Assembly (NCBI GenBank): GCA_965220085.1
Contig: CBDCOZ010000001.1
Coordinates: forward strand, 1-64,000
Direction: 5' to 3'
Origin: Candidatus Oxydemutatoraceae bacterium
GTDB lineage: Bacteria; Pseudomonadota; Gammaproteobacteria; Poriferisulfidales; Oxydemutatoraceae
DNA length: 64,000 bases
A program made the translations under genes and the position numbers. The number at the start of each line of letters is the position of its first letter. The first letter of the stretch is position 1. Below, piece after piece: positions 11,795-62,497 of this stretch. A model generated the notes under the pieces. That model searched no databases, was not told where the DNA came from, and worked only from the letters and a program-made list of their open reading frames with translations.

Positions 11795-11885
11795 CATTTA
11801 TCCCCCGCAAGGCGGGGGATTATGTGGATCAGTCTGGGATAAATGCTGGTACGGCACTTATCCCCCGCAAGCAGGGGCATAATGC
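11795..11885 (-). CRISPR. CRISPR-like repeat-spacer-repeat unit (60-bp period) beside a REP-like element
   Basis: CATTTATCCCCCGCAAGGCGGGGGATTATG and CACTTATCCCCCGCAAGCAGGGGCATAATG separated by unique sequence; rc resembles the 32-kb repeat. Confidence 0.4.
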
Positions 11886-14753: not shown

Positions 14754-15957
14754 GCGAGTGCTGCAGTTGGGTACGGTAGCGGAAGCGCTCGCCGCTGTAG
14801 CCCGCAACGGGCGCGCACTTTTATTTGATTCGTTTCAAAACACCGTCAAGGATGTCGAGGTCGTTGTAGTGGATGATGAGTTTGCCCTTGCCGGAGCGCT
14901 GGTGTTTGATCGTCACGGCGGTGCCGACTTTTTCCGACAGTTCCTGCTGAAGCTGTTTGATTTCGGCGGGCATCTTTTGTCCGGCCTGCTTGCCGCGACC
15001 CTTGCCATCCGCGCACTTTTTTGATGAAGCGGTCGGCGGCGCGGAGTTTATCAGGCGGAGTTTGAATCGCTTGGCGTGGCGGGCAAAAGCGAGGAGGAAG
15101 CATTCGCGCAGTTGTATGCGAGCAAGATTGAGGCGGCGGTGTCGGCCTGCCCCGAGGGGTGGTTGTGGACGCACAGACGGTGGAAGCGCTCGCCGCCGCA
15201 GCCCGCAACAGGCGCCGGCTTGTAAGCGAGTGCTGCAGTTGGGTACGGTAGCGGAAGCGCTCGCCGCTGTAGCCCGCAACGAGCGCCGGCTTGTAAGCGA
15301 GTGCTGCAGTTGGGTACGGTAGCGGAAGCGCTCGCCGCTGTAGCCCGCAACGCGCGCGCACTTTTATTTGATTCGTTTCAAAACACCGTCAAGGATGTCG
15401 AGGTCGTTGTAGTGGATGATGAGTTTGCCCTTGCCGGAGCGTTGGTGTTGAATCGTCACGGCGGTGCCGACTTTTTCCGACAGTTCTTGTTGCAGTTGTT
15501 TGATCTCGGCGGGCATCTTTTGTCCGGCCTGCTTGCCGCGACCCTTGCCATCCGCGCACTTTTTTAATCAAGCGGGTGCGGCGCGGAGTTTATCAGGCGG
15601 AGTTTGAATCGCTTGGCGTGGCGGGCAAAAGCGAGGAGGAAGCATTCGCGCAGTTGTATGCGAGCAAGATTGAGGCGGCGGTGTCGGCCTGCCCCGAGGG
15701 GTGGTTGTGGACGCACAGACGGTGGAAGCGTTCGCCGCCGTAGCCCGCAACAGGCGCGCACTTTTATTTGATTCGTTTCAAAACACCGTCGAGGATGTCG
15801 AGGTCGTTGTAGTGGATGATGAGTTTGCCCTTGCCGGAGCGTTGGTGTTGAATCGTCACGGCGGTGCCGACTTTTTCCGACAGTTCCTGCTGAAGCTGTT
15901 TGATTTCGGCGGGCATCTTTTGTCCGGCCTGCTTGCCGCGACCCTTGCCATCCGCGC
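14555..15957. repeat. complex tandem amplification of the convergent lpxL-like/parB 3' ends
   Basis: parB 3' ~194 bp at 14821, 15364, 15764; acyltransferase 3' ~190 bp at ~14560, 15040, 15568; linker repeated three times. Confidence 0.9.
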
Positions 15958-18085: not shown

Positions 18086-18571
18086 TCAGCGCGCGGCCTC
18101 TTGGCTGATGTCGCGCAAGACCGCGCGCATCCTTTCAAACAGCGCCCGATGCTTGCCGTCTTTGGTGTGGCGCTTTTCCAGAAAGGACGGCGCGGTGTAA
18201 CTGATCCACACCAAACCGGACTTGTCTTCCCAGATCAGCAACTTCAGCGGCAGGTCAAGGCCAATCAGGCGGTTCTTTCGCAGCAACACGGTGCCGACCT
18301 TGGGGTTGCCAAAGACAAGCAACTTGGTCGGCGGCAAAGCCATCGCAACCCCCTTGGCGTTGTCGGCGTGGTCGATGACGCCAAACACACGGAACTCGTG
18401 GTGTTCCAGAATGCGCTTGGCGCGTTCGGCGGTGGTGTCCACACTGTGGCGACTTTTGATGTGCATCGTGCCTTGCGAGGCGGGCTTCTTGATGGCATCT
18501 GCCAGGCCATCGCTCGCCAACGCTGCGAGCAAGAACAGCCATGCGAGTTTAGCCGGCGCGTACTTTTGCAT
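18086..18571 (-). CDS. DUF302 domain exported protein
   Basis: Signal peptide; VFGVIDHA, LLVFGNPKVGT, GLDLPLKLLIWED. Confidence 0.85.
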   Translation of the reverse strand: MQKYAPAKLAWLFLLAALASDGLADAIKKPASQGTMHIKSRHSVDTTAERAKRILEHHEFRVFGVIDHADNAKGVAMALPPTKLLVFGNPKVGTVLLRKNRLIGLDLPLKLLIWEDKSGLVWISYTAPSFLEKRHTKDGKHRALFERMRAVLRDISQEAAR

Positions 18572-19225
18572 GGTGCGATTTAATGTGCGGTTGCAACAGG
18601 CTCAGAGCGCGCGGCGTGATGCCCTGTATGCGCCCGGCCTGACCGAGCGTCGCCGGTTTGAACCGCAGCAGTTTGCCGCGCAACTCTTCGGACAAGCCGC
18701 TGATGTTGGCGCAGTCAAAATCCTGCGAGGCGGGCTTCTTGATGGCATCTGCCAGGCCATCGCTCGCCAACGCTGCGAGCAAGAACAGCCATGCGAGTTT
18801 AGCCGGCGCGTACTTTTGCATGGTGCGATTTAATGTGCGGTTGCAACAGGCTCAGAGCGCGCGGCGTGATGCCCTGTATGCGCCCGGCCTGACCGAGCGT
18901 CGCCGGTTTGAACCGCAGCAGTTTGCCGCGCAACTCTTCGGACAAGCCGCTGATGTTGGCGCAGTCAAAATCCTGCGAGGCGGGCTTCTTGATGGCGTCC
19001 GCCATGCCGTTGCTCGCGAGCGCCGCGCGCGCGAACAGCCATGCGAGTTTAGCCGGCGCGTACTTTTGCATGGTGCGATTTAATGTGCAGTTGCAACAGG
19101 CTCAGAGCGCACGGTGTGATGCCCTGTATGCGCCCGGCCTGACCGAGCGTCGCCGGTTTGAACCGCAGCAGTTTGCCGCGCAACTCTTCGGACAAGCCGC
19201 TGATGTTGGCGTAGTCAAAGTCCTG
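18473..19225 (-). repeat. 250-bp tandem repeat of the mnmG 3' end / DUF302 5' end junction
   Basis: Period exactly 250 bp; yields two 90-aa chimeric ORFs (18549-18821, 18799-19071). Confidence 0.92.
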
Positions 19226-20920
19226 CGGGATGGCCGTTTGCTCGGCGTCCGCCATGCGCCGAATTTCCTGTTCCTGACGCGGCAGGTAGCCGGCGTAAGC
19301 GGCGGTCGCCTCCAGTTGCTCTATCGCTTGCTCATCGCTTAGCGGGTCGGGCAGTTGCGCAAGGGCTGCGATGTCGGCGTAGCGAATGCCCGGCCGGCGC
19401 AACAGCTCGGTCGCGGCGCACGTGTTTTTCAGATTGATGTCGCGAGCGCTTGCATCTTGCGGCGTGATCTTCAGTGCGGCGAGCCGCGCCTGCTCCTTTT
19501 CAATCCGCTCCATCTTGTTATTGAACAATCGCCAGCGGCGGTCGTCAACGAGGCCGAGCTCGCGCCCTTTCGGCGTCAAGCGGGCGTCGGCATTGTCGTG
19601 GCGCAACAGCATCCGGTACTCGGCGCGGCTGGTGAACATTCGGTACGGCTCGGTCGTCCCGCGCGTGACTAAGTCATCTATCAGCACACCGATGTAGGCC
19701 TCATCGCGACGCGGGTACCACGGCGCCAGCCCGCGCACCGTTCGTCCGGCGTTAAGACCGGCAATCAAGCCCTGTGCTGCGGCCTCCTCATAGCCTGTCG
19801 TGCCGTTGATCTGACCGGCGAAGAACAGGCCTTTGACTGCCCGCGTTTCCAGCCACGGGCGCAGGCCGCGCGGCTCGAAGTAATCGTATTCAATCGCATA
19901 GCCCGGGCGCGTGATGTGGGCGTTCTCAAACCCCTTGACGGATTGCACCATCGCAAGCTGTGTTGCGAACGGCAGACTGGTTGAGATGCCGTTCGGGTAG
20001 ACCTCATCGGTGTTCAAACCTTCCGGCTCTATGAATATCTGGTGCGAGCTCTTATCGGCGAACTGCGTGACCTTGTCTTCTATCGACGGGCAGTAGCGCG
20101 GGCCGACCGATTCTATCGCGCCGTTGAACATGGGCGACTGATGCAGCGCCTCGCGGATGATCGTGTGCGTCTTTTCATTGGTGCGCGCGATGTGGCACAG
20201 CCGTTGCTCGGGGTGTTGGTCGCGGTTGCCGATGAACGAGAAGACCGGGCGCGGGGAGTCGCCGGGCTGTGTCGCAAAGCGCGCGTAATCAAGCGTCGCC
20301 CCGTCGATGCGCGGCGGCGTGCCCGTTTTGAGCCGCCCGACATTCGGCATCAACTCGCGCAACCGCGCGGCCAGCGCAATAGTCGGCGCATCGCCCGCGC
20401 GCCCGCCGCCGTGATTGTTCGCGCCGATGTGAATGCGCCCGCCGAGAAAGGTGCCGGTCGTCAGCACGACGGTTTGCGCTTTGAAGGTCAGCCCCATGCC
20501 GGTTTTGACGCCGCATACGCGGTCGTTCTCAATGATGAGATCGTCTGCCGCCTGCTGGAACAGCATCAGGTTCGCTTGCCGCTCGACCAGCCGGCGCACC
20601 GCATTGCGGTAGAGCGCGCGGTCGGTCTGCGCGCGGGTTGCCCGCACCGCAGGCCCCTTGCGCGAGTTGAGCACGCGAAAGTGAATGCCCGCGCAATCCG
20701 CCGCCTGCGCCATGATGCCGCCCAGCGCGTCGATCTCGCGCACGAGATGGCTCTTGCCGATGCCGCCGATGGCCGGGTTGCAACTCATCTGCCCGACAGT
20801 CTCTATGCTGTGCGTCAGCAACAACGTGTGCGCGCCGGTGCGCGCCGCCGCCAGCGCCGCCTCGGTACCGGCGTGCCCGCCGCCGACGACGATCACCTCA
20901 AATTCTTGCTGATTAGCCAT
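19049..20920 (-). CDS. mnmG: tRNA uridine 5-carboxymethylaminomethyl modification enzyme
   Basis: [58 protein letters not shown]. Confidence 0.98.
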
Positions 20921-20954
20921 GCCGCACATTCTACCACTCCCCCGCGCGCTCACT

Positions 20955-23867: not shown

Positions 23868-25292
23868 ATGAAAAAATTACTTTGTATCATCCTGCTATTG
23901 GGGGCGGCATCAGTGTGGGCAAACCCCATGACCGTGCCCCAAGATGTGTTAACCATAGCCCAAGCCGCTGAGGAACCTTTGAAGTTGCGCTTGCGCGTAT
24001 TCCTCGAAGGCCCCCTGCGAGGCGGTTCGTCCTCGCCCGGGGGTATCCGGTCAGGATCGCAAAGCAATCCAATCACACTAACGCTGGGAAGAGACGTATC
24101 GGGGACTATCAATCCGCCCAGCACCGTTTACTACCGTTTTACGGTGTCTACGCGCACACAGGTTACGATTACAACCGCCGGCACAACTGACAGAAGCGTC
24201 TTCTTGGAAAACAGTGAGGGCGGAACATTGGATGTTAACTTTTCTTCTGACGGAGAGACCATCGAGATAACTTCGATTCTTACAGCAGGCACTTATTACA
24301 TAATAGTTGGCGGAGTGGGCCTTGTTGATGAACCACCAGGAAGTTACACTCTGATGACAACTGGTGTGCCCATACCAGATATTCCCCTAACATTGGGAGA
24401 AAGCGTATTAGGGACTATCAATCTGGACGCTCCCAATTACTACCGCTTTACGCTGTCTACGCGCACACAGGTGACGATCGCAACCACCGGCACAACTGAC
24501 ACACTCGGAATATTGGAAAACAGTGAGAACATAGTGTTGGCATTTAATTATGATATTAGTAACGAGAATCCAAATTTCAGAATTACTCGGACTCTTGCAA
24601 CAGGCACTTATTACATTATCGTTTCGCTAGACTTTGGGGCAGACTCAGGAAGCTACACTCTGATGGCAACCACAGCGACCGCATCAGATATTCCCCTGAC
24701 ATTGGGAGAAAGCGTATCAGGGACTATCAATCCGGACGTTCCCAATTACTACCGGTTTACGGTGTCTACGCGCACACTGGTTACAATTGCAAGCACCGGA
24801 ACAGCCGACACACAAGGAATATTAGAAGACAGTGCGGGCAGACTGGTGAGATCAGGTTTTGTATCCCATCCTTTCGGATTTGCTGTGACTCTTGAACCAG
24901 ACACTTATTACTTTAGCATTGAGGGAGCTTTTTTTGACACAGGAAGTTACACCCTGATGACAACTGGTACGCCCATACCAGATATTCCCCTAACATTGGG
25001 AGAAGGCGTATTAGGGACTATCAATCCGGACGCTCCCAATTACTACCGCTTTACGGTGTCTACGCGCACACAGGTTACTATTGAAACCACCGGAACAACC
25101 GACACATTCGGAATATTGGACAACAGTGAGAACATAGCGTTGGCATTTAATTCTGATATTAGTAACGAGAATCCAAATTTCAGAATTACTCGGACTCTTG
25201 AACCGGGCACTTATTACATACTCGTTAGGGGCGAGTTTATTGACACGAGAGGAAGCTACACTCTGATTACAACCGCAAGGCCTGCGCCTTGA
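23868..25292 (+). CDS. secreted protein with four tandem PPC-like (pre-peptidase C-terminal) domains
   Basis: Signal peptide; four ~105-aa repeats YYRFTVSTRTQVTI.TTGTTDT...L..GTYYI...GSYTL. Confidence 0.8.
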   Translation: MKKLLCIILLLGAASVWANPMTVPQDVLTIAQAAEEPLKLRLRVFLEGPLRGGSSSPGGIRSGSQSNPITLTLGRDVSGTINPPSTVYYRFTVSTRTQVTITTAGTTDRSVFLENSEGGTLDVNFSSDGETIEITSILTAGTYYIIVGGVGLVDEPPGSYTLMTTGVPIPDIPLTLGESVLGTINLDAPNYYRFTLSTRTQVTIATTGTTDTLGILENSENIVLAFNYDISNENPNFRITRTLATGTYYIIVSLDFGADSGSYTLMATTATASDIPLTLGESVSGTINPDVPNYYRFTVSTRTLVTIASTGTADTQGILEDSAGRLVRSGFVSHPFGFAVTLEPDTYYFSIEGAFFDTGSYTLMTTGTPIPDIPLTLGEGVLGTINPDAPNYYRFTVSTRTQVTIETTGTTDTFGILDNSENIALAFNSDISNENPNFRITRTLEPGTYYILVRGEFIDTRGSYTLITTARPAP

Positions 25293-25344: not shown

Positions 25345-26270
25345 ATCTTAATGCGGCTTGTGTGTAGACCGGACAAGCCGCATCTTTCTTTGAGGGGGAG
25401 ACCGATATCAAAAAAGCGCTTTTGGTCATCCTGACTTTTGCGCTTGGGCTTGTTGCTGCTAGTCATGCTGTTGGGTGGGAGGAGCCGAGGCGTTCGGGCA
25501 AGCACAATGTTTATCGGTATCTCGGTTGTCACGAAGATATGAATTATGTCCAACTCGAGCAGTGTGAGGCAGAGGCCGATCGCATACTGTGGCAACTGGC
25601 TAAAGCGGCAAAAGCGTCGACAATGACACGAGGGGAAAATATGCGTATAATGCGAGCATCGGCATCTGAGGAAAGATCGAAAAAGTTGCAACAACGCGCA
25701 AGGGAGGTTTCTACTTTTATGCCCTGCGCGTAGTGAAACTGTCCGGTATGTTTACACCTTCATCGCCGAGACAGAGCAAAAGACTCGATAACACTCCTCA
25801 GGTATCGAACGGAGCAGAGTGGCATGCGAAAGCATTGCCGCTCTGCTCCACTTTTTGCAATGCGAAGCTTGTTGTCGGGCCCGAGCAACGGAACCCGGAG
25901 AGTTATTCGACTAACACAAAACTATTTTTGCCAATCAGTTGATTAGTAACCCGTAGCATCGCACGAACAACGAGCGACATAACAGAACGAAACTTTTTAA
26001 ACCTTCATAGTCTATGCTGTGGTGCATTTCGAGTTGAGCGCCAAGCGCCCTGTGGCACAAACATGAAGCGCCGGATGAACGGGCGGCCAAAGTTACAACG
26101 GTCGCAAGCGACCGATGGAACTTTGCCCCCGCGCCGCCCGTGTGAGGCCGGTGCGCGACCCCGGCAGAAACACATCCGAGGCGCAAGCCAACCGCTTTGC
26201 GCAGGGAGTGCGAGCGCGCCGAGCGCGTACTGCGCCGCCAGCGCAAGCCGCCCCGTGCGCCGGCATCGCG
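25345..26270 (+). repeat. ~0.9-kb repeated module (copy 1) containing a decayed exported-protein gene
   Basis: Homologous to 34995-35870 and partly to 38050-38640. Confidence 0.8.
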
Positions 26271-26275
26271 GTGTG

Positions 26276-26372
26276 CGCCGCCGCCGCCAGCGCCGCCTCG
26301 GTACCGGCGTGCCCGCCACTGACGACAATTACCTCAAATTCTTGCTGATTAACCACGCCGCACATTCTACCG
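26276..26372 (-). pseudogene. mnmG: 5' fragment of mnmG with its upstream sequence
   Basis: [26 protein letters not shown], near-identical to 20845-20934. Confidence 0.88.
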
Positions 26373-26455
26373 CTCTCCCTAATATTCCCTCTTGTGGGGA
26401 GTCGGCGTTCGGCAATGCTTTCGCCGCAGAGGGGAGCAATGCTAGAATGTGTCGC

Positions 26456-27100: not shown

Positions 27101-28624
27101 ATGAACATTAAATATATCGCTTATCCCGATGCTATTCTTTATAAGGCAAAAGATTGCAAAGAAGTATTAAAACAACTTCTGTGGGGTGACAAGTGTGAAA
27201 TTAAGAAAGAATCTAAAAAAGAGGTTCAAGTTTCTGTGCGTGGCACAATTGGCTGGCTTAAGAATAAGGAGGAGCAGCTACAGGAACATCCAATCATGGA
27301 AATTAATTTTGTTGATGTTGGCCAAGGAGACGGTTGTCATATCCATACTCCGGGAAATAAAGTGGTAGTGATTGATGCTGGCAAAGGGTATGAAATGTAT
27401 AACTTCCTGGCTTGGCGATATAACAATTTTAAGGACCGAGCTGCTATTCATGCGGCAATCATTTCCCATCCTGATCAAGATCATTACGGAGGGTTTGCTC
27501 ATTTTTATAAGCCCAAGCACGAATATCTGTCGGATAAAAAGATAAAAATAAAAAACCTTCTTCACAACTCAATTGTTGATAGGGGTAGCGAAAAAATAGG
27601 CAAGGTCCCAAACAAAGATTTGACAGAGTTAATATCTGGTTACCACGAACTGAAAGGCTTAATAGCTAAGAACAAGAAAGGTAAGTATTTAGAGGTAATG
27701 GAGGGGTTATCAAGTATGGTTGAGTCTCCCAAGAATAATAAAAGTAACAAGCATATTTTCGGCATTGTGTCACGCGGAGAAGAAGACGGCACATTTACTC
27801 TAGCCAATGGTCGCAGACCCGAAAAAATTAAGAACTTAAGCAAGCTACTATCTAAGAAAAGAGGAAGTGTGCGCTTTAACTTCAAAGTGATTGCGCCTAT
27901 ACCTAGAAGAGAAGGGACAGGAAACCGCAAAAAAAGATACCTGCCGTTTTTTAACAACAGCTCAAAAACAAAAAATGGTCATTCCATTGTCATCATGTTA
28001 GAGGTAGCAAATAAAAATAAAGAAAAAGTTCGGATTCTTCTCGGGGGAGACCTGAATAAAGAATCACAAGAATATCTAATGGAAGATTATGAACGCAAAA
28101 GAATGGGAGGTATTTTTTCTGCTGATGTAGCAAAGGCTTGTCATCACGGAAGCAGCGAGGTATCTCCTGATTTTATGAGAATAGTTTGCCCCATAGCGAC
28201 CGTTGTTTCTTCCGGGGATAAGGAACCGCATTGTCATCCGAGACCTGACACACTGGGCCTTATAGGCAAAACAAGCCGTGGAGACAAGCCGCTTATTTTT
28301 TCCACCGAACTCGCGCGGCCTAACTTCGATAAGTTTGGCACCGATAAAAAAGAATTAAAACAAGCTATAGAAAGCCACAAAAAAGATAAGGAGGCACAAG
28401 AATACATAAAAGCAGTGAATGAAATCAGAAGTTTGTCTGCTGCTTATGGAACCATCACCGTACTTACCGATGGAAGCCGCATCATGATAGCTCAAAGAAA
28501 TGAAATGAAAAACCTAGGTAGCAAAAAAGCTTGGGATCTTTTTGCCATAGAAAGAAAGAAGGGCAAGTTAGAGTTTGTCGGGAAACCGCGCCGCAAGCGA
28601 AGGGCAATGCGGAGAGGGGGCTAA
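27101..28624 (+). CDS. ComEC/Rec2-like metallo-beta-lactamase-fold hydrolase
   Basis: FVDVGQGDG, IDAG, SHPDQDHYGG, NGHSIV, LLGGD, KACHHGS, HCHP; low GC. Confidence 0.8.
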   Translation: MNIKYIAYPDAILYKAKDCKEVLKQLLWGDKCEIKKESKKEVQVSVRGTIGWLKNKEEQLQEHPIMEINFVDVGQGDGCHIHTPGNKVVVIDAGKGYEMYNFLAWRYNNFKDRAAIHAAIISHPDQDHYGGFAHFYKPKHEYLSDKKIKIKNLLHNSIVDRGSEKIGKVPNKDLTELISGYHELKGLIAKNKKGKYLEVMEGLSSMVESPKNNKSNKHIFGIVSRGEEDGTFTLANGRRPEKIKNLSKLLSKKRGSVRFNFKVIAPIPRREGTGNRKKRYLPFFNNSSKTKNGHSIVIMLEVANKNKEKVRILLGGDLNKESQEYLMEDYERKRMGGIFSADVAKACHHGSSEVSPDFMRIVCPIATVVSSGDKEPHCHPRPDTLGLIGKTSRGDKPLIFSTELARPNFDKFGTDKKELKQAIESHKKDKEAQEYIKAVNEIRSLSAAYGTITVLTDGSRIMIAQRNEMKNLGSKKAWDLFAIERKKGKLEFVGKPRRKRRAMRRGG

Positions 28625-28743: not shown

Positions 28744-29865
28744 TTAGCCGGGCCGTGTGTCGTTTATGATGCGCATAAGTCGGGTGAAGCACAGTATGGC
28801 AGCCTGCCCGCCGCGACCCGGTCGTATCGTATCCAGAATTCCGGCAGCTGTTATGCTACGCAATAAGTTGCTGACAGTAGTGCGATTGACCCCGTAATCC
28901 CGGTGCATCTGTCTGGCTAGGTCGGGGACCGAAAAAATGGGTTTGCTGAATATGGCATCCAGAATATAAACAATGTATTGTGAATGGGTTATCTTGCGGA
29001 CGCGCTCTTGCATATCCTTGCGCAGGCTCTGAATGGCGGAGACTCTTCTGGCATTGGTTTTGGCATGTTCGGCAATCGCATTGAGAAAAAACGCCACCCA
29101 ATCGCTCCATGCGCCCTCATCCGAGATGGCCAAAAGATGACGGTAATATGCTTGGCGATGTTTCTCAAGATACTCGGAAAGGTAGAACATGGGTTGTGAC
29201 AAGGCTTTCTTGTAGTACAAAAACAGCGGTATCAGCATCCGCCCGACACGCCCATTGCCATCATTAAAAGGGTGCAGAATCTCAAACTGGGCGTGCATCA
29301 CAGCGGTTTGCAACAGCGGATCAAGGTCATCCGATGCCATGTATTGCTCCCATGCTCGCAAATGCTCCTCCAAAACAAGCGGTTCTGGTGGCACAAAGCG
29401 CGCTTCTGCGATGGCGCTACCGGGGCGGCCTATGTAGTTTTGGGTCGTGCGAAACGCCCCCGGCGTCTTGTCCTGACCGCGCACCTCCTCCATCAACAGC
29501 CCATGCAATTGACGCACTAAGTGTAGCGACAACGGACGCGATTTTTGCAGATACGCATGGCCTTCCCTCAAAGCGGTTCGGTAGTTGATGATTTCTCTGA
29601 AGCCATAATACTTATCTTCCTTGTCGGGCGACCCGGCCTCATACTTAAAAACCTCGTCCAGAGTTGCCTGAGTTCCCTCTATTCTGGATGACAGGGTCGC
29701 CTCTTGGTCGGTGAGGGGTGATAACATCACACCGGGGTTGGGTATGCTCTGCAACATCCCTGTATAGTGCGCCAGAGTAGCATTGGCACGTCCCACCAAA
29801 GGTAACAACCTCCTATGGTCCAGGCGATTATTCAGGGGTAAGTTGTCAGGCTGGCAAGGCTTCAT
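28744..29865 (-). CDS. Fic family protein with intact motifs
   Basis: Inhibitory SSRIEG and catalytic HPFNDGNGRVGR. Confidence 0.92.
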   Translation of the reverse strand: MKPCQPDNLPLNNRLDHRRLLPLVGRANATLAHYTGMLQSIPNPGVMLSPLTDQEATLSSRIEGTQATLDEVFKYEAGSPDKEDKYYGFREIINYRTALREGHAYLQKSRPLSLHLVRQLHGLLMEEVRGQDKTPGAFRTTQNYIGRPGSAIAEARFVPPEPLVLEEHLRAWEQYMASDDLDPLLQTAVMHAQFEILHPFNDGNGRVGRMLIPLFLYYKKALSQPMFYLSEYLEKHRQAYYRHLLAISDEGAWSDWVAFFLNAIAEHAKTNARRVSAIQSLRKDMQERVRKITHSQYIVYILDAIFSKPIFSVPDLARQMHRDYGVNRTTVSNLLRSITAAGILDTIRPGRGGQAAILCFTRLMRIINDTRPG

Positions 29866-30088
29866 CGGGGCAAGTCCATTCTGTGAAAATGCCCCATTAT
29901 ATCAGACTTGTGGCAAAAAATGAATTTTTCGATGCAAGTTGGCAAACTTGTAGCGCAGCGTTTACAAGTTTGAATAATTTCCGATAAAACAGTGTCTTAG
30001 AGACGGGTTGCGATTTGGTGAGCGATTCGGCTAAGGAAGGGTGCGCACCATGCTAACCATCGCTCCCCCCTCGCTGAGTGCAAGTAAT

Positions 30089-30227
30089 ACTCTCCCCTTG
30101 TGGGAGAGTCGGCGTAGTTGTGCTACGCCGGAGAGGGGGAAAGGAAGGTTCGTGCAAGAAGCTCCCCCTCACCGCATCGTCCTTCGCCTTCGGCTCGTCC
30201 TCTGCGACTCTCCCGCGAGGGGAGAGT
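30089..30227. mobile_element. 139-bp MITE-like element
   Basis: Terminal IRs ACTCTCCCCTTGTGGGAGAGTCG ... CGACTCTCCCGCGAGGGGAGAGT; near-identical to 32220-32358. Confidence 0.75.
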
Positions 30228-30390
30228 GTTTCCCCCTCACCGGTGCGCTTGCGGGGATGGTGCGAGAGGAGCGTGTTGGAGTAGCTGCCGCTAGGCTACC
30301 TGCTAGCCAGCCCCCTTAGCTTACCGACTCTCCCGCGAGGGGAGAGTCATGCGATGTGCGGAAGGGGGCGGCAACCGCCGCAGGCGGCGC

Positions 30391-31506
30391 TTAGCCGGGC
30401 TGGCTGTCGTTTAGGATGCGCATAAGTCGGGTGAGGCACAGTATCGTCGCACACCCGCCGCGACCCTGTCGTGTTGTATCCAGAACTCCGGCAGCCACTA
30501 GGTTGCGCACCAGGTTGTTGACAGTGGTGCGATTGATTCCGTGACTCCGGTGCATCTGTCCGGCTAGGTCGGGGATTGAAAAAATGGGTTTGGCGAATAC
30601 GGTGTCCATAAGAGGAACAATGTATCGCGAAGGGCTTATCTTGCGGACGCGCTCGTGTATATCCTTGCGCAGACTCTGAATGGCGGCGACTCTTCTCATA
30701 CCGGCTTCGGCATGTTCGGCAATCGCATTGAGAAAAAACGCCACCCAATCGCTCCATGCGCCCTCATTCGAGATGGCCAAAAGATGACGGTAATATGCTT
30801 GGCGATGTTTCTCAAGATACTCGGAAGGGTAGAATGTGGGTTGTGGCGAGGCTCCCTTGTAGTACAAAAATAGCGGTATCAGCATCCGCCCGACCCGCCC
30901 GTTGCCATCATAAAAAGGGCGCAACATCTCAAACTGGGCGTGCATCACAGCGGTCTGCAACAGCGGGTCAAGGTCATCCGATGCCATGTATTGCTCCCAT
31001 GCTTGCAAGCGCTCCTCCAACGCAAGCGGTTCCGGCGGCACAAAGCGCGCCTCTGCGATGGCGCCGCCGGGGCGGCCCATGTGGGTTTGGGCGGTGCGAA
31101 ACTCCCCCGGCGTCTCGTCCTGACCGCGCACCCCCTCCATCAACAGCTCATGCAATTGACGCACTAAGCGCAACGACAACGGACGCGATTTTTGCAGATG
31201 CGCATGGCCTTCTCTCAAAGCGGTTCGGTAGTTGATGATGATTCTGAAGCCATAATATTTGTCTCCCTTGTCGGGCAATCCGGCATCATGCCCAAGAACC
31301 TCGTCCAGAGTCGCCTGCGTTCCGCCTATTGCGGATGACAGCGTCGCCTCTTGGACGGTGAGGGGTGATAACATCGCATCGGGTATGTCCTGTAGCATCC
31401 TTGTGTAGCGCGTCAGGGTAACGTTGGCCCGCCCCACTAGAGGCAGCAACCTCCTATGGTCCAGGCGATCATTCAAGGGTAAGTTGTCGGGTTGGTAAGG
31501 TTTCAT
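30391..31506 (-). CDS. Fic paralog with degenerate active site
   Basis: Close paralog of 28744-29865; SSAIGG and RPFYDGNGRVGR. Confidence 0.88.
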   Translation of the reverse strand: MKPYQPDNLPLNDRLDHRRLLPLVGRANVTLTRYTRMLQDIPDAMLSPLTVQEATLSSAIGGTQATLDEVLGHDAGLPDKGDKYYGFRIIINYRTALREGHAHLQKSRPLSLRLVRQLHELLMEGVRGQDETPGEFRTAQTHMGRPGGAIAEARFVPPEPLALEERLQAWEQYMASDDLDPLLQTAVMHAQFEMLRPFYDGNGRVGRMLIPLFLYYKGASPQPTFYPSEYLEKHRQAYYRHLLAISNEGAWSDWVAFFLNAIAEHAEAGMRRVAAIQSLRKDIHERVRKISPSRYIVPLMDTVFAKPIFSIPDLAGQMHRSHGINRTTVNNLVRNLVAAGVLDTTRQGRGGCATILCLTRLMRILNDSQPG

Positions 31507-31740
31507 CGGGGCAAGTCCATTTTGTGAAAATATCCCATTGTATCAGACTTGTGGCAGAAAATGAAATTTTTGCTACAAGTCGGCAAACTTGTAGCACAGC
31601 GCATACAAGTTTGAATAATTGCCGATAAAACAGTGTCTTAGAGACGGGTTGCGACTCGGCTAAGGGGGACTGCGCATAATGCTCACCATCATTCTCTCCT
31701 TGTGGGGGAATTGCTCGCACTCAGTGCAGAGGCCGAAAGG

Positions 31741-31803
31741 CAGCAACCTCCTATGGTTCAGGCGATTATTCAGGGGCAAGTTGTCAGGTTGGCAAGGCTT
31801 CAT
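31741..31803 (-). pseudogene. third fic copy, 5' 21 codons only
   Basis: MKPCQPDNLPLNNRLNHRRLL with the same upstream region as the other two copies. Confidence 0.8.
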
Positions 31804-31942
31804 CGGGGCAAGTCCATTCTGTGAGAATGCCCCGTCATGTCATACTTGTAGCGCAGGGTTTACAAGTTTGAATAATTGCCGATAAAACAGTGGCTTAGAG
31901 ACAGGTTGCGAGTCGGCTAAGGAAGGGTGCACACCATGCTAA

Positions 31943-32216
31943 CCATCGCTCCCCTCGCGTGGGGACAAATGATTACCCGAAGTCGGATGTGGTGGCATTA
32001 TACCATCACTCCCCCCTCGCATGGGACAAATTTGTTGCGATGCGCGCGACGCCTCGGCGTCTCGCATCACTCCCCCCTCGCATGGGACAAATACACGATT
32101 GAAGTGCGTTTAATCCCCGTTTAAATCATTCCCCCCTCTGTGGGACAAATATCACTCTCCTCTTGTGGGTGCTCTGTCGACGCACTGCCGCTCGATTTCC
32201 CTCGCGTGGGACAAAT
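31943..32216. CRISPR. orphan CRISPR-like mini-array: 4 repeats, 3 unique spacers, plus a degenerate fifth unit
   Basis: Core repeat ATCACTCCCCCCTCGCATGGGACAAAT (exact at 32005 and 32066, variants at 31945 and 32125, partial at 32198); 32-34-nt unique intervals; no cas genes in the window. Confidence 0.7.
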
Positions 32217-32219
32217 ATC

Positions 32220-32358
32220 ACTCTCCCCTTGTGGGAGAGTCGGCGTAGCTGTGCTACGCCGGAGAGGGGGAAAGGAAGGTTCGTGCAAGAAGCTCCCCCT
32301 CACCGCATCGTCCTTCGCCTTCGGCTCGTCCTCTGCGACTCTCCCACGAGGGGAGAGT
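32220..32358. mobile_element. 139-bp MITE-like element
   Basis: Copy of 30089-30227. Confidence 0.75.
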
Positions 32359-32411
32359 GTTTCCCCCTCACCAGTGCGCTTGCGAGGATGGTGCGAGGGG
32401 AGCGGAGCGGG

Positions 32412-34994: not shown

Positions 34995-35870
34995 ATTATA
35001 TGCGGCTTGTGAGCAGTCTGCACAAGCCGCATCTTTCTTTGAGGGGGAGACCGATATCAAAAAAGCGCTTTTAATCATCCTGACTTTTGCGCCTGCGCTT
35101 GTTGTTGCGAGTCATGCTGTTGGGTGGGAGGAGCCGATGTATTCGGGCAAGCGCAATGTGTATCGGTATCTCGGTTGCCACGAAGACATGAATTATGTGC
35201 AACTGCAACAGTGCGAGGCAGAGGCCGAGCGCATAATGCGGCAACCGGCTAAACCGGCTGAAGCGGCAAAAGCGTCGACAATGACACGCGGGGCAAGTAT
35301 GCGTATAATGCGGCCATCGAGACCTGGGGGGTGATCGGAAAAGTTGCAACTATGCGCCGGAGCAAATGTTTCTCTGGCATCGGTCGCATAGTAAAACTGT
35401 CCGGTGCGTTGACAGAACCGTTACCGTGACAGAGCAGAAGACTCGATAACATTCCTCAGGTATCGAATGGAGTGGGGTGGCATGCGAAAGCATCGCCGCT
35501 CTGCTCCGCTTTTTGCAATGCGAAGCTTGCGCTCCGATCAGTTGATTGGTAACCCGTAGCATCGCGCGAACAACGAGCGACACCGCATAACGAAACTTTT
35601 TAAACGTTCATAGTCTATGCTGTGGCGCTTTTCGAGTTGAGCGCCGCAGCACTCCGTAGCACAAACATGAAGCGCGAGGTGGACGGGCGGCCAAAGTTAC
35701 AACGGTCGCAAGCGACCGATGGAACTTTGCCCCCGCGCCGCCCGTGTGAGGCCGGTGCGCGACCCCGGCAGAAACACATCCGAGGCGCAAGCCAACCGCT
35801 TTGCGCAGGGAGTGCGAGCGTGCCGAGCGCGTACTGCGCCGCCAGCGCAAGCCGCCCTGTGCGCCGGAAC
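34995..35870 (+). repeat. ~0.9-kb repeated module (copy 2)
   Basis: Collinear with 25345-26270. Confidence 0.8.
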
Positions 35871-36274
35871 AACCGCAAGCCCTGCGCCCGCCTCTGTGGC
35901 CGGCGCACAGGGTGGCGCCGAGCGAGAGGGTGGCCGCTGGCACCCGGGCCGAGGCAGCGGCCACTGCCCGCGACAGCCAAGCACAGCGCCGGCGACAACT
36001 GCGGACGCGGGCGGTGGCCGCTTGGTGCAGCGGCGAGCGCGCCGGAGGCGAAGAGTGCCCGCTGCCACCGGTGCGCGACAGGGTGTCCCCGCGGCCGGCG
36101 CGCGGAGGTCATGTGCCGTCGTGCGCGAAGTCATGCCGTCGAGGTGCGCGCACAATGGCCGCCGCTTGCGACAGCGCAAGCGTCGCCTGCGCACACCGGT
36201 GAAGCACCAAGCGACTGCGACGCCGAGGGATGATCCGTAATCATGCCGCAACCACATTACTACGGGTAGCCCAA

Positions 36275-38001: not shown

Positions 38002-38049
38002 TGGCCGGCGGGGCTCTGGGGCGCAAAACGGCTAAAGCGGCAACTGTTG

Positions 38050-38750
38050 CCCGTGGGGAAAATATGCATATAATGCCACTATCACGATTTGAGGATTGAT
38101 TAAAAAGGTTGCAACAGTCGCCGGGGGCTCTTCTCCTTTAGCGCCCGACGCGTAGTGAAACTGTCCGGCAAGCATGTAAACTAATCGCCGAGACAGAGCA
38201 AAAGACTCGATATACATCCTCAGATATCGAACGGAGTGGGGTGGCATGCGAAAGCATCGCCACTCCGTTCCACTTTGTGCAATGACGACTGACACAAAAT
38301 TGTTTCTGTCGATGAGTGGAGCGGAACACCGGAGCATCGTACGAACAACGATCGACACGACCGAACGAAACTTTTCAAACATTTGCAGTCTATGCTGTGG
38401 TGCGTTCCTGATGGGCACCACAGCACCCTATCGATCTTAGAAATGCATCGGCGCATCATCGACCTGCCGGACGACAGCACAAGAAGGAAGCGCCGCCCGC
38501 GTGAGACCCCGACAGAAACACATCCGAAGCGCAGGTCAACCGCTTTGCGCAGGGAGTGCGAGCGCGCCGAGAATGTAATGCGTCGCAAGCGCAAGCCGAC
38601 CAGTGCGCCGGAACAACCGCAAGCCCTGCGCCCATCTCTGTGGTCGGCGCACTGGGCGGCGCCGTGCGAGGCGGTCCGTCTTCGCCGAGCACAAGCACCG
38701 AGCCTACGCCTGTTGCGCCGAGCATACCCACAGAGGTCCCGCAATAAGAA
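38050..38750 (+). repeat. partial repeated module (copy 3)
   Basis: Shares CGTAGTGAAACTGTCCGG...ATCGCCGAGACAGAGCAAAAGACTCGATA, AGTCTATGCTGTGG and CAGAAACACATCCGA..GCAGGGAGTGCGAGCG with copies 1 and 2. Confidence 0.7.
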
Positions 38751-38969: not shown

Positions 38970-39449
38970 ATGAAAAAAGTCATTGCAACCGTAATCTTGT
39001 GTATCCTGACAAGCGCCGCTTGCGCCCCAAAAGACTTTCAATCCTCCTTAACACTTGATAGTGATAGGTGCAATGCGCAGTGGCTGCACCGCGCCAATGG
39101 TATAGAATTGACATCTGATAGTGATAGCGGCACCCCCCGGTTAACACTGCGTTCGCGGATGTTTGTTACTATTCAAACCAACACAGTGGGACGACTGGAA
39201 AACAGTTCGGGCAGAGTGTTAATCACTAGCGATGACGATGGATCAGGCAATAATTTCGGCATTAGGGGAGTTCTTGAGCCGGGCACTTACTACATAAGAG
39301 TTGCGGGCTTTCAGAACTTGCCGTCATGCCGTTCATCAACGGGCGAGGGTACTTCCTCCATAAGAGTTGCGGGCCATCAGAACACAACGCTGAACATAGA
39401 CGCCCGTGCTCCCCGTGACGGTGATCCTGTCATTGGCGGCGGAGGCTGA
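38970..39449 (+). CDS. putative lipoprotein with PPC-like domain
   Basis: MKKVIATVILCILTSAAC; LENSSGRVLITSDDDGSGNNFGIRGVLEPGTYYIRV; alternative start at 38898. Confidence 0.65.
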   Translation: MKKVIATVILCILTSAACAPKDFQSSLTLDSDRCNAQWLHRANGIELTSDSDSGTPRLTLRSRMFVTIQTNTVGRLENSSGRVLITSDDDGSGNNFGIRGVLEPGTYYIRVAGFQNLPSCRSSTGEGTSSIRVAGHQNTTLNIDARAPRDGDPVIGGGG

Positions 39450-39461
39450 GGCGGCGCTCTG

Positions 39462-39995
39462 TCACTGACCGAGTGTCGCCAGCTTGAACTGTAGCAGTTT
39501 GCCGCGCAGCTCTTCGGACAGGCCGCTGATGTTTGCATAGTCAAAATCCTGCGGGATAGCCGTTTGCTCGGTGTCCATCATGCGCTGAATTTCCTGCTCC
39601 TGACGCGGCAGGTAGCCGGCATAAGCGGCGGTCGCTTCAAGTTGCTCGACCGCTTGCTCGTCGTTTAGCGGGTCGGGCAGTTGCGCAAGGGCTACGATGT
39701 CGGCGTAGCGAATGTCCGGCCGGCGCAACAACTCGGTCGCACTGCAAGTGTTTTTCAGACTGATGTCGCGGGTGCTTGCCTCTTGCGGTGTAATCTTCAG
39801 TGCGTCAATCTCACGCACCAGATGGCTCTTGCCAATCCCGCCGATGGCCGGATTGCAACTCATCTGCCCGACAGTCTCTATGCTGTGCGTCAGCAGAAGC
39901 GTGTGCGCGCCGGTACGCGCCGCCGCCAGCGCCGCCTCGGTCCCCGCGTGCCCGCCGCCAACGACAATGACCTCAAATTCTTGCTGGTTAACCAT
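39462..39995 (-). pseudogene. mnmG: mnmG copy with large in-frame internal deletion
   Basis: N-terminal ~65 aa (...HLVREIDAL) fused to the C-terminal part (KITPQ...LATLGQ*). Confidence 0.9.
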
Positions 39996-40007
39996 GCCGC
40001 ACATTCT

Positions 40008-40240
40008 ATCACTCCCCCCTCGCGGGGGAGTCGGCGAGCGCAGCAAGCCGGAGAGGGGGACAGCCTCATACTTGCACTAACCAACACTCCCCCCTCGCGG
40101 GGGAGTCGGCGAGCGTAGCAAGCCGGAGAGGGGGAAAAGGAAAGTTCGTGCAAGAAGCTTCCCCTCACCGCATCGTCCATCGCCTTCGGCTCGGTCTCTG
40201 CACTTGGTGCAAGCCGGAAACTTTCCCGCAAGGGGAGAGT
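40008..40240. repeat. tandem REP/MITE-like copies
   Basis: Two ACTCCCCCCTCGCGGGGGAGTCGGCGAGCG.AGCAAGCCGGAGAGGGGG units; the second extends to a full MITE variant. Confidence 0.75.
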
Positions 40241-42293: not shown

Positions 42294-42430
42294 CCTTCTT
42301 TCTGATAAAAACTTTCCCTGTCGAATGGCAGGGAGGCTTATATGATAAATCATCGTGTTGCATTTGGTGGCTGTGGAGACGCATCCGAGACACGTTGCGA
42401 TTCGGCTAAGGAGGAGTGCGCATAATGCGA

Positions 42431-42520
42431 CCATCGTTCCCCCTTCGCACGGGACAAATAAGGTAACTTTGCTCAAAGGACGCTCAAATTACCATCGTTC
42501 CCCCTCGCGGGGGAGAGTCG
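42431..42520. CRISPR. CRISPR-like repeat-spacer-repeat unit merging into a REP element
   Basis: CCATCGTTCCCCCTTCGCACGGGACAAAT + 32-nt spacer + CCATCGTTCCCCCTCGCGGGGGAGAGT; period 61; same upstream flank as the 32-kb array. Confidence 0.55.
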
Positions 42521-42619
42521 GCGTAGCTGTGCTACGCCGGGGAGAGGGAAGTTTGTTGGAGCTTGCAAGGGGAGTGGAGCGATGCAGTGGGGGACAAGCC
42601 CCTGCCAGATGAACTCAAC

Positions 42620-62398: not shown

Positions 62399-62497
62399 GT
62401 ATCAGGGCGGTATGATAATGCACTCTCATTGTTTCGGACGCTTGGATGACAACGGAGAACGCATCAGGGCGGTATGATAATGCGCCCTCATTGTTGC
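62399..62497 (+). repeat. pair of 37-bp hairpin-forming direct repeats with a 25-bp unique spacer
   Basis: GTATCAGGGCGGTATGATAATGCACTCTCATTGTTTC / GCATCAGGGCGGTATGATAATGCGCCCTCATTGTTGC. Confidence 0.7.

Follow-up and report, generated by a model that had tools for sequence, protein, structure and literature searches.

The analysed window is a 64-kb stretch at the start of contig C1 of a Candidatus Oxydemutatoraceae genome (2.49 Mb in three contigs, C1–C3; assembly completeness, 99%). Three fic-related pieces, all on the minus strand, lie within 28.7–32.4 kb of this window, and each is followed, in the plus-strand direction, by an AT-rich upstream region and then by a junction module of ~47–50 nt. 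At the third piece, a truncated fic stub, the junction module leads into a block of short repeats and spacer-sized inserts that resembles a CRISPR array; the structure and origin of this block are considered here. The junction module occurs at four loci: the two fic genes (copies 1 and 2), the fic stub (copy 3) and 42.4 kb (copy 4). The features around the block are as follows, with module alignments and copy identities taken from sequence comparison.

28744–29865, minus strand: ficA, a SoFic-type Fic protein of 373 aa with an intact HPFNDGNGR motif (Pfam Fic_N and Fic; PADLOC SoFic, E = 2.4e-114; motif from alignment)
29866–29997, no strand assigned: AT-rich fic upstream region, copy 1 (118/132 identical to 31507–31638; inverted repeats; palindrome CAAACTTGTA-N10-TACAAGTTTG)
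29998–30057, plus strand: junction module of copy 1, with a 12-nt internal duplication (44/47 identical to copy 3)
30058–30087, plus strand: H0, the unexpanded pseudo-repeat of copy 1, with no insert (5′ half like repeat U1 of copy 3; 3′ half different)
30088–30273, no strand assigned: hairpin composite of copy 1, like repetitive extragenic palindromic (REP) elements (181/188 identical to 32217–32404; modules genome-wide)
30391–31506, minus strand: ficB, a paralogue of ficA (294/373 aa identical; Pfam, alignment), with the motif His changed to Arg (RPFYDGNGR)
31639–31735, plus strand: copy 2, with the junction module at 31639–31690 followed by an ordinary REP-type hairpin and no insert (~80% like the modules at C3:246.6–247.3 kb, by eye)
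31736–31810, minus strand: fic 5′ stub of 75 nt, the truncated third copy (31736–31852 is 91% identical to 29798–29914)
31896–31942, plus strand: junction module of copy 3 (alignment of copies)
32217–32404, no strand assigned: REP-like hairpin composite of copy 3 (repeat analysis, BLAST)

The first-pass annotation had described the flank as "fic upstream" sequence present in triplicate. Aligning the copies confirms the three fic-associated positions and adds a fourth copy, at 42386–42560, that does not lie beside fic; the flank is therefore a module of its own. Its description of the individual copies agrees with the alignment: copy 1 passes from one degenerate repeat (30058–30087) straight into the hairpin element (30088–30273), copy 2 is empty, and copy 3 carries ~250 bp of additional units, the distance from repeat start to hairpin being 276 nt in copy 3 vs. 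30 nt in copy 1 (about +247 nt). The copies form two junction subtypes, 1/3 and 2/4, and copy 2 is fused at 31736 to the fic 5′ stub. Copy 3 lies closest to copy 1 (junction module, 44/47; fic 5′ end plus upstream region, 149/160; composite, 181/188).

The near-identity of the "MITE plus tail" (MITE, miniature inverted-repeat transposable element) in copies 1 and 3 is likewise borne out, but the element is not a single MITE. The whole 188-nt unit occurs only at copies 1 and 3, and it is a composite of REP-like modules that recur separately throughout the genome, a 54-nt module and a 65-nt module each being found at many sites. BLAST gives 73 matches to the hairpin module and 66 to the whole composite, genome-wide, and the hairpin YACTCTCCCCTYGYGGGAGAGTC is also found in tandem clusters elsewhere. 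High-copy palindromic hairpins of ~22 nt in intergenic clusters are a feature shared with REP elements, bacterial interspersed mosaic elements (BIMEs), REPINs (REP doublets forming hairpins) and MITEs; here, they flank the array and form the "MITE". Unlike those families, the modules occur in many combinations with no single unit with ends, and a REP-associated tyrosine transposase (RAYT; Y1 transposase, PF01797) gave 0 matches in the genome, in a search whose control was positive in 6 of 14 named genomes. REP clusters, unlike the copy 3 block, are without unique 33-nt spacers. The 3′ half of the junction module and the repeat share the layout of REP-like clusters at C3:246–247 kb, C3:1229 kb and C2:36 kb (nhmmer E, 3.1e-4 to 7.3e-3; 3.1e-4 to 9.5e-4 for the modules at C3:246.6–247.3 kb), and the repeat resembles both the neighbouring hairpin (~19/25 by eye) and the REP flank modules. 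Long tandem arrays on the REP-like hairpin, with 7–12 units of 61–81 nt, are present at C2:112342–112860, C3:1962417–1963092 and C3:1964560–1965057.

Repeat–spacer block of copy 3 and single spacer of copy 4

The block of copy 3 spans 31944–32216, directly before the hairpin composite, and consists of four repeat-like units (U1–U4) with three inserts (S1–S3), followed by a fourth unit of different dimensions.

31944–31970, plus strand: U1, pseudo-repeat, 27 nt (sequence, direct-repeat analysis)
31971–32003, plus strand: S1, 33-nt insert (only chance-level matches of 15–18 nt in the genome; no viral match)
32004–32031, plus strand: U2, pseudo-repeat, 28 nt, identical to U3 (direct-repeat analysis)
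32032–32064, plus strand: S2, 33-nt insert between identical repeats (sequence searches)
32065–32092, plus strand: U3, pseudo-repeat, 28 nt (direct-repeat analysis)
32093–32125, plus strand: S3, insert of 33 nt if the duplication is 26 nt, or 31–32 nt if the repeat is 27–28 nt (sequence coordinates)
32126–32150, plus strand: U4, degenerate pseudo-repeat with a 1-nt deletion (direct-repeat analysis)
32134–32169, plus strand: left-hand copy of the fourth unit's 36-nt duplication, running from within U4 to nt 19 of the hairpin (direct-repeat analysis)
32170–32198, plus strand: fourth-unit insert, 29 nt (geometry of the resident 36-nt repeats; no match in the genome)
32199–32235, plus strand: right copy of this duplication, 37 nt (duplication analysis)

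In some respects, the block has the appearance of a canonical array. Four repeats of 26–28 nt are present, two of them identical (U2 vs. U3, 28/28), and the inserts of 33, 33 and 33 (or 31–32) nt are unrelated to each other and to the rest of the genome; the insert of copy 4 is also 33 nt. In other respects, it does not. No cognate cas gene was found in the genome, no array in two contig collections has this repeat, and the units are not in one register: the last is shifted by 8–9 nt from the start of U4, into the hairpin. The block therefore has two geometries (duplication + insert, in nt), namely 26–28 + 33 three times and 36/37 + 29 once. What might be taken for a fifth 28-nt repeat is part of the 36/37-nt duplication around the 29-nt insert.

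All repeat units end in ...GGGACAAAT. This common ending and the identity of U2 and U3 indicate that the units were copied from a pseudo-repeat and did not decay independently. The position of S2 between identical repeats suggests that it is probably the youngest unit; if so, insertion would not have been restricted to the leader end, since S2 lies mid-block. The presence of identical repeats beside unrelated spacers led to the rejection of three other candidates, namely iterons, integron attC sites and tandem duplication with later divergence.

The 28-mer repeat is absent from the genome outside the window and from 40 relatives. With up to five substitutions, it has three matches in the genome, two in the array and one at 42432. 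Pattern scans returned 15 loci in the genome_contigs collection, with a single match each and no array, and 55 loci in the metagenome_contigs collection, with one match each and no further likeness; by our estimate, these single matches are in the chance range. The array region has no blastn match in phages or plasmids, the 20-nt cores of S1, S2 and S3 each have 0 matches in viral contigs, and six-frame peptides of S1–S3 reach no more than 8/11 in this genome among the matches listed.

Copy 4 spans 42386–42560 with no fic gene nearby and contains a single 33-nt spacer, with a period of 61 nt.

42386–42431, plus strand: junction module of copy 4, between a DUF4212/SSF symporter operon and a DUF4238 gene (alignment)
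42432–42459, plus strand: pseudo-repeat, 28 nt (28-mer search)
42460–42492, plus strand: spacer, 33 nt (29/33 to a DinG/YoaA-like helicase gene; the four differences synonymous)
42493–42560, plus strand: second repeat, fused to a REP-like hairpin module (alignment, BLAST)

The spacer matches C3:749352–749384 (29/33; E = 0.003), in frame in a 639-aa open reading frame (ORF) with Helicase_C_2 and DEAD domains, DinG/YoaA-like, which is neighboured by ribD-, ispD- and TsaD-family genes. Translation gives the same 11 residues for both, with all four differences falling at third codon positions, so that the spacer represents a fragment captured from a homologous gene. A search of 53 genomes of the order (this one and 52 others) found no match better than the 29/33 of the bacterium itself. 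Since a self-derived spacer under decay would also show changes at first or second positions (p ~0.01–0.02, a rough estimate), a related foreign allele appears a likelier source than the bacterium's own gene.

Scars elsewhere in the genome and the resident CRISPR systems

Two-copy direct repeats separated by unique DNA were collected genome-wide, outside the two true arrays, and removal of tandem contexts and high-copy repeats left 123 of 150 pairs. Two combinations of lengths stand out. Repeats of 34–38 nt with gaps of 26–32 nt account for 23 pairs, vs. 1–11 in neighbouring cells, and among the clean pairs with repeats of 33–39 nt the gap is 26–32 nt in 23 of 39 (the 36-nt class). Among pairs with repeats of 24–32 nt, the gap is exactly 33 nt in 11 of 41 (the 33-nt class, which includes the U2/U3 pair of copy 3), and any other gap length occurs at most three times. 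C2:216716 and C2:218289 are copies of one unit, and the inserts at C3:1719640 and C3:468686 are themselves repeated.

Fourteen inserts match DNA elsewhere in the genome (10 in the 36-nt class and 4 in the 33-nt class). Ten of these units were inspected: for nine, the matching DNA sits between flanks that bear no relation to the insertion site, and for the tenth, C3:157674, the match is to a neighbouring copy of the unit itself. Examples are as follows.

C2:189687: 36 + 29, match elsewhere 29/29
C3:707894: 37 + 29, match 29/29 at 35464–35492 of the window
C3:1255929: 36 + 31, match elsewhere 31/31
C3:919301: 27 + 33, match elsewhere 32/33
C3:1740676: 28 + 33, match elsewhere 33/33

At three sites, a filled copy can be compared with empty paralogous sites that contain exactly one copy of the target: C3:331173 (empty at C3:337477 and C3:336330), C3:1048869 (empty at C3:1580140) and C3:1966988 (empty at C3:365269 and C3:837633). 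Two inserts each are present at C3:707824–707996 and C3:1725355–1725520. A spacer-sized insert flanked by a duplicated native target is thus seen in these three pairs as well as in copy 3 when compared with copies 1 and 2, and insertion of identifiable DNA with unrelated flanks is seen for the copy 4 spacer and for the nine genome-wide units above, not for S1–S3. A search of donor flanks for a protospacer-adjacent motif gave no shared motif by eye.

Several units of this kind are located in the window. At 39281–39383, beside a gidA remnant, a 37-nt direct repeat (32/37) encloses a 29-nt unique insert in the geometry of the resident arrays; DNA matching this insert was not found elsewhere. At 62401–62495, in the interval from the McrBC genes to the following ORF, a 29-nt insert that matches C3:1630383–1630408 (25/26) is enclosed by a 33-nt direct repeat (31/33). 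At 11798–11884, upstream of rpoD, the GC-rich hairpin TTATCCCCCGCAAGGCGGGGGATTATG occurs twice (23/27), 33 nt apart, and its likeness to the type I-E repeats of related genomes is striking (p = 0.003). The insert at C3:707931–707959 matches 35464–35492 (29/29) and 38228–38256 (28/29), its apparent source, within a ~1-kb segment of which the window has three copies. Further solitary units are present at unrelated sites at C3:788997 and C3:836209.

The genome has only two cas1 loci, Cas9–Cas1–Cas2 (type II) beside a 66-repeat array and Cas12a–Cas4–Cas1–Cas2 (type V-A) beside a 64-repeat array. Both arrays have 36-nt repeats unrelated to the repeat at the fic locus, and their first ten spacers are 30–34 nt long in one and 26–28 nt in the other. 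The V-A ruler is described as being set by Cas1–Cas2 (PMC13034035). The 36-nt class, like the 36/37 + 29 unit of copy 3, fits the resident type II and V-A geometry, whereas the 33-nt class, to which the three 26–28 + 33 units of copy 3 and the unit of copy 4 belong, fits neither; 28 + 33 matches type I-E. Among the 52 other genomes of the order, the type I-E protein Cas7e is found in three, two of them in the same family, and the I-F protein Csy3 in none; the I-E arrays of related genomes have 28-nt repeats and a period of 61 nt. The H0 units are more like these I-E repeats than 95.3–99.7% of random 28-mers of the genome, and of the class-33 targets, those at C1:11798 (p = 0.003) and C3:1740676 (p = 0.002) are also like them. 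No Cas remnant was detected among the unassigned ORFs of the window by Pfam, NCBIfam or PADLOC. Spacers of the two canonical arrays have no match in the genome over more than 16 nt, in a search in which spacer lengths came out 4 nt short (the fuzzy repeat match took 40 nt). The absence of self-matching spacers from the true arrays is consistent with selection against self-targeting in those arrays and with stray sites being neutral.

Origin of the block

We consider it probable that the block at the fic locus is a neo-CRISPR array, formed by off-target spacer integration into a native hairpin-like sequence, and not a canonical array. H0, a native hairpin-like 28-mer between the junction module and the REP-like hairpin with an I-E-like layout (C-run, loop, GGGA, A-rich tail), would attract off-target Cas1–Cas2, and each event would insert a spacer-sized fragment and duplicate the target, as with a true repeat. 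Three events with the I-E ruler (26–28-nt duplication + 33-nt insert) would have expanded H0, one event by an integrase with a 36-nt ruler would have added, in a shifted register, the 36/37-nt duplication and its 29-nt insert, and the paralogous H0 at 42.4 kb would have received one 33-nt insert. The REP layout of H0 and the junction, and the unexpanded forms in copies 1 and 2, support a native target. We infer that Cas1–Cas2 made the units and scars, and the 33-nt class would derive from a type I-E adaptation module that is now lost or lies on an unassembled replicon. Gain of units at the fic locus, as opposed to loss, is favoured because of the filled and empty site pairs elsewhere in the genome, an argument by analogy only. 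Because there is no cognate effector and no promoter-like site, the locus is expected to be without immune function at present; it would be a scar that might also serve as material for a new array.

A broader proposition, on which we are evenly divided, is that the genome is a natural record of widespread off-target adaptation. It would hold at least ~30 stray integrations made with three rulers (36 + ~30, 36 + ~27 and 24–32 + 33), many of them of self DNA, and one ruler would belong to an unencoded I-E integrase. The fic hairpin would then be a hotspot hit at least four times by two integrases, and would show an array partway through arising from a REP-like element.

Several observations weigh against off-target integration as the origin of the block. 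Cas6e, Cas7e, Csy4 and Csy3 were not found, so that no I-E or I-F gene is known from a 99%-complete assembly, and the maker of the 33-nt class is therefore hypothetical. Seven of the ten other class-33 targets are unlike I-E repeats (p > 0.15), none of the 22 targets of the 36-nt class is like the resident repeats at p < 0.05, and three of the 11 class-33 units (C3:650248, C3:1136307, C3:1524279), whose inserts look like the repeat, are considered doubtful. The copies of the duplications agree at 214/222 positions in the 33-nt class vs. 703/758 in the 36-nt class. The former thus shows no visible sign of greater age, which would point to a recently present or unassembled I-E module and fits poorly with a long-lost system. 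For S1–S3 and the 29-nt insert, no donor was found in the genome, phages, plasmids or viral contigs. On the plus strand, a promoter scan gave no promoter-like site (weak evidence), and repeat RNA folds no better than shuffled sequences (z, −0.4 to −1.9). In copy 4, likeness between the second repeat and the first ends after ~17 nt, and a later event is therefore needed; a deletion between the repeat and the similar hairpin may have occurred, or conversion. In the 16 nt before the hairpin, copies 1 and 3 are identical at only 8 positions (hand alignment), and because the 3′ half of its repeat is so unlike copy 3, copy 1 is not an exact empty allele. The earlier claim that units were gained or lost at one precise point is supported in its core by the ~247-nt difference at a single point between these closest copies, but copy 1 does not serve as a clean "before" state. 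The comparison with related genomes that had been proposed leaves the direction of change without an outgroup at the fic locus, since none of the 52 other genomes of the order is congeneric.

An unlikely alternative, although the strongest of the rivals, is an eroded orphan I-E array. Under this reading, the sequence was the true repeat of a type I-E system that the lineage once had; its cas genes and principal arrays would have disappeared, copies 3 and 4 would be satellite arrays in decay with ends invaded by REP-like elements, and recombination between repeats would have removed the spacers from copies 1 and 2. The 28 + 33 geometry with its period of 61 nt, the I-E-like repeat layout and the occurrence of I-E in 3 of 52 relatives are as such a history would have them, and the conserved ~47-nt module before the first repeat at four loci is leader-like. 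A spacer-bearing copy is present in both junction subtypes (1/3 and 2/4), which is parsimonious with an ancestral array, and the terminal repeat of arrays is usually degenerate. However, the repeat is found in no array of the two contig collections, the junction and repeat follow the REP layout of the genome itself, and the last unit, with its 36-nt duplication, departs from the register of the others. In addition, similar scars are found at unique non-CRISPR sites with empty paralogues, and a single repeat-to-repeat deletion in copy 3 cannot yield copy 1.

Considerably less probable is an origin unrelated to CRISPR, in which REP-associated recombination or transposition would have produced a REP/BIME-like cluster whose spacing is incidental. 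The hairpin family is abundant (the 73 matches noted above), the repeat resembles the adjoining hairpin and the REP flank modules, and the region is rich in segmental duplications, all of which speaks for such a cluster. REP clusters elsewhere, however, repeat their linkers, whereas the linkers here are unique; three or four inserts are exactly 33 nt long, one insert comes from a coding gene, from which it differs only synonymously, and no RAYT-type transposase (PF01797) was found in the genome. To our knowledge, no transposase makes target duplications of 26–37 nt.

That the triplication or the array is an assembly artefact, a mis-join among repeats, is scarcely credible: although no single record or contig spans the whole of 28.7–32.4 kb and contigs of run X1 (possibly the source sample) break at REP modules, with loose ends at 30085–30164 and 31704–31736, ficA and ficB differ at ~13% of bases (971/1116 identical) and therefore have not been collapsed into one, their copy-specific X1 contigs are of equal depth (41.8–42.9; 42.9 vs. 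41.8–42.7), and the entire array lies within a single 417-nt X1 contig that covers 31863–32279 without difference (depth, 43.7; zero variants).

Off-target integration, the reading preferred here, has a precedent in E. coli, in which type I-E Cas1–Cas2 integrates spacers off target and spawns neo-CRISPR arrays (Nivala, Shipman and Church, 2018, as cited in PMC7054753, PMC6698737 and bioRxiv 10.1101/148544). As presented in those accounts, spacer-sized inserts appear at non-CRISPR sites, a repeat-sized target is duplicated and reuse of the site gives a small array, all of which is shared with the present locus, as is the 28 + 33 geometry of I-E. The two cases differ in that a natural genome is concerned here rather than overexpression of Cas1–Cas2, two or three rulers have been at work on a single locus, the assembly does not encode the presumed I-E integrase, and dozens of scars persist, many from the bacterium's own DNA. 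For natural off-target integration, bioRxiv 10.1101/148544 is a source of circumstantial evidence only, in two species.

Remnants consisting of a leader and a single repeat are exemplified by type I-F in E. coli. Like these remnants and the orphan arrays reviewed in PMC8616872, the fic-locus copies are short, lack cognate cas genes, have degenerate end repeats and include zero-spacer copies; unlike the orphan arrays as covered by that review, the repeat is in no cas-linked array searched and belongs to a REP layout, and the register is broken by one unit. Ectopic spacer acquisition within the CRISPR1 and CRISPR3 arrays of Streptococcus thermophilus (PMC5338259; PMC7999890) is similar in that integration occurs away from the leader-proximal repeat, just as the mid-block S2 looks youngest here, and different in that the arrays described in those papers are true arrays served by their own cas genes.

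Our literature search on off-target and ectopic spacer integration found no natural genome with many such scars. Within the literature searched, the new elements here are natural, multi-ruler, REP-seeded off-target integration with filled and empty pairs, the known kind being the E. coli neo-CRISPR arrays. The case bears on two open questions, the origin of new CRISPR arrays and the natural frequency of Cas1–Cas2 integration outside arrays, and off-target integration has so far been documented mainly in overexpression experiments. The genome offers site-by-site filled and empty pairs together with a multi-spacer locus on a REP-like hairpin, and because the donors of many inserts are known, the sampling of self DNA by the integrases is directly readable. 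Insertional scars, some possibly inside genes, would be a cost of CRISPR adaptation. A scan for repeat-length duplications around spacer-length inserts is applicable to all genomes and might reveal CRISPR types that a lineage has lost.

Neighbouring features of the window

The ficB motif reads RPFYDGNGRVGR; the catalytic His of HPFxDGNGR, which is kept in ficA, is replaced by Arg, and ficB may be inactive. The palindrome CAAACTTGTA-N10-TACAAGTTTG is conserved in each fic upstream region (29935–29975, 31572–31630 and 31861–31887) and resembles an operator, one that the winged-helix C-terminal domain of SoFic-type proteins might recognize. Unequal exchange between the REP composites, which sit at the unit borders, is the probable source of the tandem fic units. 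Two flanking ORFs of 507 and 506 aa were compared as possible paralogues, and this relationship was rejected.

Segmental duplications are abundant in the region. The mnmG/gidA gene at 19049–20953 is full-length; its 5′ end recurs in two further copies (92% identical over 101 nt), and an internally deleted remnant is also present (26279–26379, 39462–40046). A ~1-kb segment at 25351–26379 recurs at 35000–35931 and 38017–38675. The region of 21–40 kb next to gidA looks to have been assembled by serial segmental duplication or insertion.

The fic locus is surrounded by a defence island (27101–28624; 44–63 kb). Its members include a metallo-β-lactamase (MBL)-fold protein like LmuA, 6A-MBL or Avs1a, two C5 DNA methylases, a type I restriction–modification system (HsdM, HsdS, HsdR), a PD-Lambda-5_A-like protein, a HATPase protein, McrBC and a DUF4238 protein. 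An Rfam scan of the window found one tRNA and nothing else. Tandem repeats are present at 18474–19257 (3 copies of 250 nt, 96%, directly beyond the gidA 3′ end), at 24337–25273 (3.1 copies of 309 nt within the gene for a PPC-domain protein) and at 15182–15357 (2.5 copies of 71 nt).

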